From assembly GCF_003018255.1 (NCBI RefSeq), contig NZ_CP027440.1: DNA of 64,000 bases; one strand, written 5' to 3'. The translations under genes were made by a program, and so were the position numbers. The notes under the pieces are model-generated. The model was not told the origin of the DNA. It worked only from the letters and a program-made list of their open reading frames with translations, and did not search any database. Positions 138-23,543 of this stretch are shown one piece after another; position 1 is the first letter of the stretch, and every line of letters starts with the position of its first letter. Source of the DNA: Escherichia coli (lineage in GTDB: Bacteria > Pseudomonadota > Gammaproteobacteria > Enterobacterales > Enterobacteriaceae).

Positions 138-180
138 AAAGCAACCTCAATAAGAAAAACTGCCGCGAAGGATAGCAGGA

Positions 181-548
181 ATAAAAAAAGGGAGCACTGT
201 ATTCACAGTGCTCCCGGTTCGTTTCGCAGCATTCCGGCTACTTTTGTTGCTCCCTGCTCATCCTTGACAACTTTTCCTCTGGCCTTGCGGCCAATCGTTC
301 ATCCTGAACTATTGCTTCCTGCTCACACCACCCCGATGTGATACTTCATCCTGAAGTGTTCCTGGCCTTCCTGACCCACCGAATCATCCTGACCGGTTCT
401 CATTCTCCATCCTGGAGGTGTCCTTTAACGCGTCCTGCGTCATCCTCTTCGCTTCATCCAGAAGCCTTTCCCTGAAACACCATCCTGGTGTGTCCTTCAG
501 AAGTGTCATCATCCTGATGTTCACTTCGTTGTCTGACTCCCTGTCGAC
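181..548 (-). ncRNA. csrB: CsrB small RNA (CsrA-sequestering sRNA)
   Basis: Minus strand reads GTCGACAGGGAGTCAGACAACGAAGTGAACATCAGGATG... with at least eight CAGGA(T/A)G-type GGA motifs (seen as catcctg on the plus strand). It ends in a hairpin GGGAGCACTGTGAATACAGTGCTCCC plus a T-run (plus-strand 183-215). About 368 nt, matching the CsrB sequence as I recall it; ends are approximate. Confidence 0.9.
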
Positions 549-17671: not shown

Positions 17672-18589
17672 TTATTGTTCATAACGAAAGCGGAATTTTT
17701 CTTGTTCAGCAGCGGCTTTCGCCAGGATCCATTGGCGAAAGGCGGCTATTTTACCCAGTTCTGCCTGGCTGTCATGACAAACCAGATAAAAAGCGTTTTT
17801 ACTGACCAGAACATCATTAAACGGGCAAACAAGACGTCCGGCCTCAATTTCAGATTGCGCCATCACGTTATTTGCCAGCGCCACTCCCTGCCCGTGGATA
17901 GCCGCTTGCAGCACCATGGCGCTATGGCTAAAAATTGGCCCTTGCTGAACGTTGATATGATTTAACCCCAACTGTCGGGTATATGTCTGCCAGTCACGAC
18001 GCGACGCATCATGTAATAACGTATGTTTAGCCAGATCTTCCGGGGTCTTCAAGGGTTTTTCGCCAGTCAGCAGTAGCGGCGAACACACCGGCAATAAATA
18101 TTCGGCGTAAAGTTTTTCCACCCGTAGCCCCGGCCAGTTGCCCCGACCATAAAATATCGCCACATCAACATCATCCGCCAGCTTATCTTCCTGACGATCA
18201 ACCGCCTGGATTCGAACGTCAATTCCCGGATAAGCTGAATTAAAGCTGGAAAGTCGCGGAACCAACCAATGAATGGCGAAACTGGGGAGTAAACTGACCG
18301 TCAACGCCCCCTTAGCGCTACGGGCCTGGAGTTTACGCGTCGCTTCGGTTAATTGCGAAAATATCTCTTTGATATCGAGGAAATAGCTTTGCCCTTCCTC
18401 GGTCAGCAGGAGTGAACGATTACGGCGGCGGAACAGTTTTAGCCCCAGAAAATCCTCAAGAGACTTGATTTGATGACTTACTGCGGCCTGGGTCACAAAA
18501 AGCTCTTCTGCTGCGCGAGTGAAACTTAAATGGCGTGCTGCGGCATCAAAAACTCGTAAGGCATTTAGCGGTGGTAATCGTTTAGACAT
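17672..18589 (-). CDS. gcvA: LysR-family glycine cleavage system transcriptional activator
   Basis: 305-aa ORF MSKRLPPLNALRVFDAAARHLSFTRAAEELFVTQAAVSHQIKSLE... (LysR helix-turn-helix). Confidence 0.95.
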   Translation of the reverse strand: MSKRLPPLNALRVFDAAARHLSFTRAAEELFVTQAAVSHQIKSLEDFLGLKLFRRRNRSLLLTEEGQSYFLDIKEIFSQLTEATRKLQARSAKGALTVSLLPSFAIHWLVPRLSSFNSAYPGIDVRIQAVDRQEDKLADDVDVAIFYGRGNWPGLRVEKLYAEYLLPVCSPLLLTGEKPLKTPEDLAKHTLLHDASRRDWQTYTRQLGLNHINVQQGPIFSHSAMVLQAAIHGQGVALANNVMAQSEIEAGRLVCPFNDVLVSKNAFYLVCHDSQAELGKIAAFRQWILAKAAAEQEKFRFRYEQ

Positions 18590-18717
18590 GGCTTTTAAAC
18601 TTTGATGTTAAATGAATTTAACAATTAGATTACACTATGTAACCTATTAGTTTTTTTAATCTGAGCCATTATAAATTGTCCGTTGAGCTTCTACCAGCAA
18701 ATACCTATAGTGGCGGC

Positions 18718-18923
18718 ACTTCCTGAGCCGGAACGAAAAGTTTTATCGGAATGCGTGTTCTGGTGAACTTTTGGCTTACGGTTGTGATGTTGTGTTGTTG
18801 TGTTTGCAATTGGTCTGCGATTCAGACCATGGTAGCAAAGCTACCTTTTTTCACTTCCTGTACATTTACCCTGTCTGTCCATAGTGATTAATGTAGCACC
18901 GCCTAATTGCGGTGCTTTTTTTT
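18718..18923 (+). ncRNA. gcvB: GcvB small RNA (Hfq-dependent)
   Basis: Divergent from gcvA. Sequence ACTTCCTGAGCCGGAACGAAAAGTTTTATCGG...GTTGTGATGTTGTGTTGTTGTGTTTGC (G/U-rich R1 region) ending in hairpin GCACCGCCTAATTGCGGTGC plus T8 (18916-18923). About 206 nt. Confidence 0.9.
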
Positions 18924-18939
18924 ACCTTGCGATCGCGAA

Positions 18940-19167
18940 TTACTGATCCAGTTCGACCATCTCTTTCACGTCGGTACGGTTGATCTGCTGTTTGTTGCCA
19001 TTAGCGTCTTTATACGAAATCATACCGGTATCGTTATCAGTCTGTGGTTTGCCGTCAGAGACGATGGTACGTCCGTCATTGGTGTGCATCACATAGTTCG
19101 AACCGGAACAGGCGCTCAGGGCAAAAGTCAGCATACAGGCAGAAATAATTGCGGCAGTCTTTTTCAT
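18940..19167 (-). CDS. ygdI: DUF903 lipoprotein
   Basis: 75-aa [35 protein letters not shown]... with signal peptide and lipobox LSAC; start at the second Met of the track ORF. Confidence 0.88.
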
Positions 19168-19358
19168 CATCTTCTCCTTAAAGCGATTAATAAATCTTAA
19201 TAGTATTGATTAACAGGCTAAAATTAACGCCTAACACTATTCAGCATATGTTACTGACGCGGCTTCGCCAGGATATCCAGATAATTCTGATGGTTAGCAC
19301 TCTCCTTGTATCAAAGTGAATTTTGCGTCACGATCGGTGCATCAAGCCGAGGAGTACC

Positions 19359-23246: not shown

Positions 23247-23323
<77 letters not shown>

Positions 23324-23356
23324 ATTAAAATTTGATGAAGTAAAGCAGTACGGTGA

Positions 23357-23433
<77 letters not shown>

Positions 23434-23466
23434 ATCAAAATTTGATGAAATAAAGCAGTACGGTGA

Positions 23467-23529
<63 letters not shown>

Positions 23530-23543
<14 letters not shown>

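Follow-up and report, generated by a model that had tools for sequence, protein, structure and literature searches.

The stretch of DNA analysed here, referred to as the window, is 64 kb long and almost certainly carries, at 18718-18923 on the plus strand, the gcvB gene from the chromosome of an Escherichia coli strain (probability about 0.98). The gene is flanked by gcvA and ygdI. The features of the locus are as follows.

17672-18589, minus strand: gcvA, encoding the LysR-type regulator that activates gcvB (305-aa ORF; protein identical to K-12 GcvA, b2808)
18590-18717, no strand: control region shared by gcvA and gcvB, 128 bp (from the alignment with K-12)
18646-18660, no strand: IR1, inverted repeat of the GcvA-site type, ATTAG-TTTTT-TTAAT (from the sequence, with CTAAT on the minus strand at 18646-18650)
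18668-18682, no strand: IR2, putative degenerate GcvA-site repeat, ATTAT-AAATT-GTCCG (placed from PMC5002191 and the sequence)
18683-18711, plus strand: sigma-70-type promoter of gcvB (consensus scan, 9/12 matches)
18718-18923, plus strand: gcvB, full-length 206-nt GcvB small RNA (RF00022 match and identity to K-12 b4443)
18940-19167, minus strand: ygdI, DUF903 lipoprotein gene (75-aa ORF; protein identical to K-12 YgdI, b2809)

The complete window was searched against Rfam 15 at the gathering threshold, and the segment 18400-19300 was additionally rescanned on both strands with permissive settings. The covariance model of GcvB (RF00022) matched at 18718-18923 (+) with 199 bits, compared to a gathering score of 42 (E = 1e-46), and the alignment spanned the full model (positions 1-204 of 204). 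The same match was recovered in the permissive rescan. A sequence-only reading of the region had described a GcvB small RNA of 206 nt, located between gcvA and ygdI and divergent from gcvA, and had named a covariance-model search and a comparison with the K-12 gene as the checks to be made. Both checks agree with this description: the unit is the 206 nt at 18718-18923, and the positions of the two minus-strand ORFs correspond to the arrangement in K-12. The interval assigned to the unit (18590-18923) was less accurate. It contains gcvB, but it comprises 334 nt instead of 206, as it includes the 128-nt control region 18590-18717.

Besides GcvB, the permissive rescan of 18400-19300 on both strands yielded only one sub-threshold match, to RF02631 (Hrs13, "Hfq-regulated sRNA 13"; 28.1 bits compared to a threshold of 52) at 18852-18923 (+). 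Since this match falls wholly within the much stronger GcvB match, in its 3' third, it was rejected as a separate element. The overlap may reflect sequence common to the two Rfam models, and the Hrs13 and GcvB families may be related or overlapping.

In K-12 MG1655, the ncRNA gcvB (b4443) is annotated at 2942696-2942901 of NC_000913.3, between gcvA (b2808) and ygdI (b2809). The window copy is identical to it in 206 of 206 nt. The gene order rlmM-ygdD-gcvA, divergent gcvB, convergent ygdI and then csdA is also shared between the two sequences. The stop codon of ygdI lies 16 nt past the 3' end of gcvB, and the longest ygdI ORF begins one Met earlier, at 19170. At this locus, sequence identity, family membership, secondary-structure elements, promoter, terminator and operator motifs as well as synteny were established directly.

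The boundaries of the parts of the RNA were read off the structure line in the cmscan alignment. An independent thermodynamic fold recovered the same helices, with a minimum free energy (MFE) of -62.1 kcal/mol (z = -3.63); none of 200 dinucleotide shuffles was as stable. The parts are listed in 5' to 3' order.

18718-18725, plus strand: 5' single strand (cmscan structure)
18726-18776, plus strand: stem-loop 1, SL1 (cmscan structure, also in the MFE fold)
18777-18810, plus strand: linker carrying R1 (cmscan structure)
18781-18807, plus strand: R1, G/U-rich seed, GcvB nt 64-90 (exact unique match)
18811-18829, plus strand: stem-loop 2, SL2 (cmscan structure and MFE fold)
18831-18845, then U6 to 18851, plus strand: SL3, internal Rho-independent terminator t1 (terminator scan)
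18846-18861, plus strand: linker carrying R2, UUUUUUCACUUCCUGU, GcvB nt 129-144 (cmscan structure)
18862-18894, plus strand: stem-loop 4, SL4; its 23-nt loop carries seed R3 (cmscan structure)
18895-18916, T8 run at 18916-18923, plus strand: SL5, terminator t2 (terminator scan and cmscan structure)

The G/U-rich stretch singled out in the sequence-only reading as characteristic of GcvB, GTTGTGATGTTGTGTTGTTGTGTTTGC, is found exactly at 18781-18807 (+) and corresponds to R1. It occurs once in the 64-kb window and had no match in 100 shuffles; 25 of its 27 bases are G or U (15 T and 10 G). R1 lies between SL1 and SL2. Both the Rfam consensus and the centroid fold leave it unpaired, while the MFE fold places 10 of its bases into a weak 5-bp hairpin. 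In SL2, the innermost pair of the model (C18818/U18822) is non-canonical.

Two terminator-like sites were detected in the region, compared to 0.8 expected from shuffles. The first, t1, consists of GGTAGC-AAA-GCTACC followed by T6 and would end a short form of roughly 130 nt. The second, t2, is the hairpin AGCACCGC-CTAATT-GCGGTGCT with an 8-bp stem, six G-C pairs and a 6-nt loop. The T run behind it (18916-18923) has exactly eight T, the first of which closes the stem, in agreement with the terminal hairpin plus T8 that had been noticed from the letters. The 3' U-tail of GcvB is the expected Hfq-binding end, as is general for Hfq-dependent small RNAs. We do not claim that the t2 hairpin works in both directions and also terminates ygdI; its continuation on the minus strand is ACATTAAT and not a U tract.

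The linker UUUUUUCACUUCCUGU agrees with the Rfam consensus UUUuCACUUCCUGU, which is unpaired. The conserved part of R2 in this linker, CACUUCCUGU at 18852-18861, lies downstream of the internal hairpin and is an exact match to the consensus. For the exact boundaries of R2 we presumed those of Sharma et al. 2007. In the loop of SL4, the bases at GcvB nt 156, 160 and 162 (18873, 18877, and 18879) read G, G and C. As the R3 point mutants named in PMC9299463 are G156C, G160C, and C162G, the numbering fits a +1 at 18718.

An ATG-initiated ORF of 46 codons is present within the gene at 18751-18891 (+), and its translation would turn the transcript into an mRNA or a dual-function RNA encoding a small protein. 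We regard this as highly improbable and rejected the coding reading. The sequence upstream of the ATG, UUUUAUCGGA, is devoid of a GGAGG-type Shine-Dalgarno motif, and the ATG itself is buried in the SL1 stem. Moreover, the ORF crosses t1. In E. coli, roughly 90% of transcripts end at t1 and 10% at t2 (PMC1557403), and those ending at t1 could not encode it. The same source, citing Urbanowski et al., reports the E. coli GcvB RNAs as untranslated. The ORF is therefore considered a chance ORF in a non-coding gcvB.

Upstream of gcvB, the promoter is composed of the -35 hexamer TTGAGC (18683-18688), a 17-bp spacer and the -10 hexamer TATAGT (18706-18711). The last base of the -10 hexamer lies 7 bp before A18718 (+1), a spacing that fits the 5' end of both the Rfam match and the K-12 feature. 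According to PMC5002191, gcvB has two GcvA inverted repeats with the pattern ATTAG-n5-CTAAT, whose centres lie at -65 and -43; the promoter-proximal one (-43) adjoins the -35 box and is the least conserved. The centre of IR1, 18653, corresponds to -65 from the gcvB +1, the same position as published. IR2, the 15 bp ATTATAAATTGTCCG, is centred at -43 and ends immediately before the -35 hexamer; the motif match itself is weak. The CTAAT motif occurs 47 times in the window compared to about 99 matches expected, a count that is uninformative as statistics. The motif is meaningful solely by its position relative to +1.

Alignment of 18560-18960 with K-12 (401 columns) revealed two differences, each of which lies upstream of +1: 18594 is T (K-12 A) and 18631 is T (K-12 C). 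T18594, located 5 nt upstream of the gcvA start codon, is the common allele (exact 61-mer in 4119 of 5425 E. coli records). T18631, at -87 from the gcvB start, is a minority allele, with the exact 61-mer in 147 of 5266 matching E. coli records; among others, it is carried by Nissle 1917 and ATCC 25922. Since neither SNP touches the RNA, the promoter hexamers or IR1/IR2, a regulatory effect of either base is not expected. T18631 falls in the divergent gcvA transcript's leader, at a distance of three bases from an extra CTAAT (18624-18628, minus strand). There is a slim chance that it alters GcvA autoregulation or gcvA translation, and hence the set-point of GcvB in this lineage.

Two SNPs in the control region, one of them a minority allele, are what might be cited for a decayed or silent relic, that is, a GcvB-like sequence whose expression or function was lost in this strain. 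Such a loss is barely conceivable for an RNA with 100% identity to the functional K-12 gene. No change from K-12 is seen in the promoter hexamers, IR1, IR2 or either terminator, GcvA is intact and identical to its K-12 counterpart, and the 334-nt sequence (18590-18923) recurs without alteration in many strains, among them Nissle 1917 and ATCC 25922. These observations favor an intact gcvB gene over a relic.

Among 5426 complete E. coli genomes, the 206-nt gcvB sequence was matched in 5425, with at least 99% identity in 5389. One genome is without a match; of the matches, one is on a plasmid record, and in a few genomes two places are matched. In E. coli JNE23-011 and JNE112863, the 10 kb around the locus are 100% identical to the window, which identifies the window as E. 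coli chromosome. In Nissle 1917 the 334-nt interval is identical, but the surrounding 4.6 kb are just 98.4% identical, and the idea that the window comes from this strain was rejected.

The unit had also been described as invisible to ORF-based annotation, and this holds in practice. No annotated feature was found under the gcvB match among the 40 matches listed, and in the PGAP records of Nissle 1917 and OkiPb01677 gcvA is followed by the next annotated gene, with nothing annotated at the match. An ncRNA feature for gcvB is present in the curated K-12 record. The absence of gcvB from annotation is a matter of annotation policy and not of biology.

In the bovine isolate OkiPb01677 (NZ_AP042483.1), an IS4-like ISVsa5 element interrupts gcvB behind nt 125, shortly before completion of the t1 stem. 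Judged from the sequence, this looks like a natural disruption.

The GcvB family (RF00022) comprises members from Enterobacteriaceae, Pasteurellaceae, and Vibrionaceae. Its five stem-loops, the G/U-rich R1 linker and the R2 stretch are all present in the window copy. Compared to the family consensus, R1 of E. coli has an 8-nt insertion, uuguguug (18790-18797), and the RNA shows a few loop deletions of 1-2 nt; these are normal E. coli features. GcvB of Salmonella and of Yersinia pestis likewise has two terminators, which give RNAs of about 130 and 206 nt, and is controlled by GcvA/GcvR (PMC1557403). The Salmonella RNA differs from that of E. coli in 10 nt and has the same seeds R1, R2, and R3 (PMC9299463), while the Y. 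pestis RNA is 77% identical (PMC1557403).

Expression of the gene, its control by GcvA and glycine, its Hfq dependence and the repression of targets would follow by analogy with the K-12 and Salmonella literature on identical or near-identical RNA. GcvA activates gcvB when glycine is present, and GcvA together with GcvR represses it otherwise (PMC1557403; PMC9299463). The terminators t1 and t2 give products of 130 and 206 nt (PMC1557403). GcvB is Hfq-dependent; R1 serves most targets, R2 is apparently used for cycA only, and R3 in SL4 is used for phoP, lrp, and others (PMC9299463). In PMC3658540, +73 to +82 and +124 to +161 are given as complementary to cycA. In the window, these regions read TTGTGTTGTT and CTACCTTTTTTCACTTCCTGTACATTTACCCTGTCTGT, respectively, and the R2 linker 18846-18861 falls inside the second of them. 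The sponge RNA SroC pairs with GcvB at SL1 and SL4 and triggers its decay by RNase E (PMC9299463). The GcvB mechanism is also supported by the abstract of PMC4474525.

Applied to the window copy, transcription would start at A18718 from the promoter TTGAGC-17-TATAGT. The divergently encoded GcvA would activate this promoter, bound at the -65 repeat and at the weaker site adjoining the -35 box. If regulation is as in K-12, activation would occur when glycine is abundant, and GcvA with GcvR would repress the gene when glycine is scarce. The RNA would then act in trans together with Hfq. The single-stranded R1 linker and, to a smaller degree, R2 and the SL4 loop with R3 would pair with the leaders of target mRNAs, predicted to be those of amino-acid and peptide transporters and of amino-acid biosynthesis (e.g., oppA, dppA, cycA, sstT, gdhA, lrp, and phoP). 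Pairing would block translation initiation and promote mRNA decay. Pairing of SroC at SL1 and SL4 would in turn lead to decay of GcvB by RNase E.

Further RNA genes were observed in the window. A full-length CsrB RNA, a well-known non-coding regulatory RNA that ORF-based annotation would also miss, lies at 180-539 (-) (RF00018, 381.7 bits compared to a gathering score of 71). At 23247-23543 (+), three identical tandem tRNA-Met (CAT) genes with 110 bp spacing were found; by their sequence and their position beside this locus, they are probably the E. coli metZ-metW-metV initiator tRNA cluster.

GcvB, which has been studied since 2000, ranks among the major regulators of amino-acid transport and metabolism. 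The gcvB gene at 18718-18923 is an already known gene, and this copy adds nothing new to it. The result matters only as a quality check, in that an ncRNA gene was recognized from raw sequence at a place left blank in routine ORF-based annotation.
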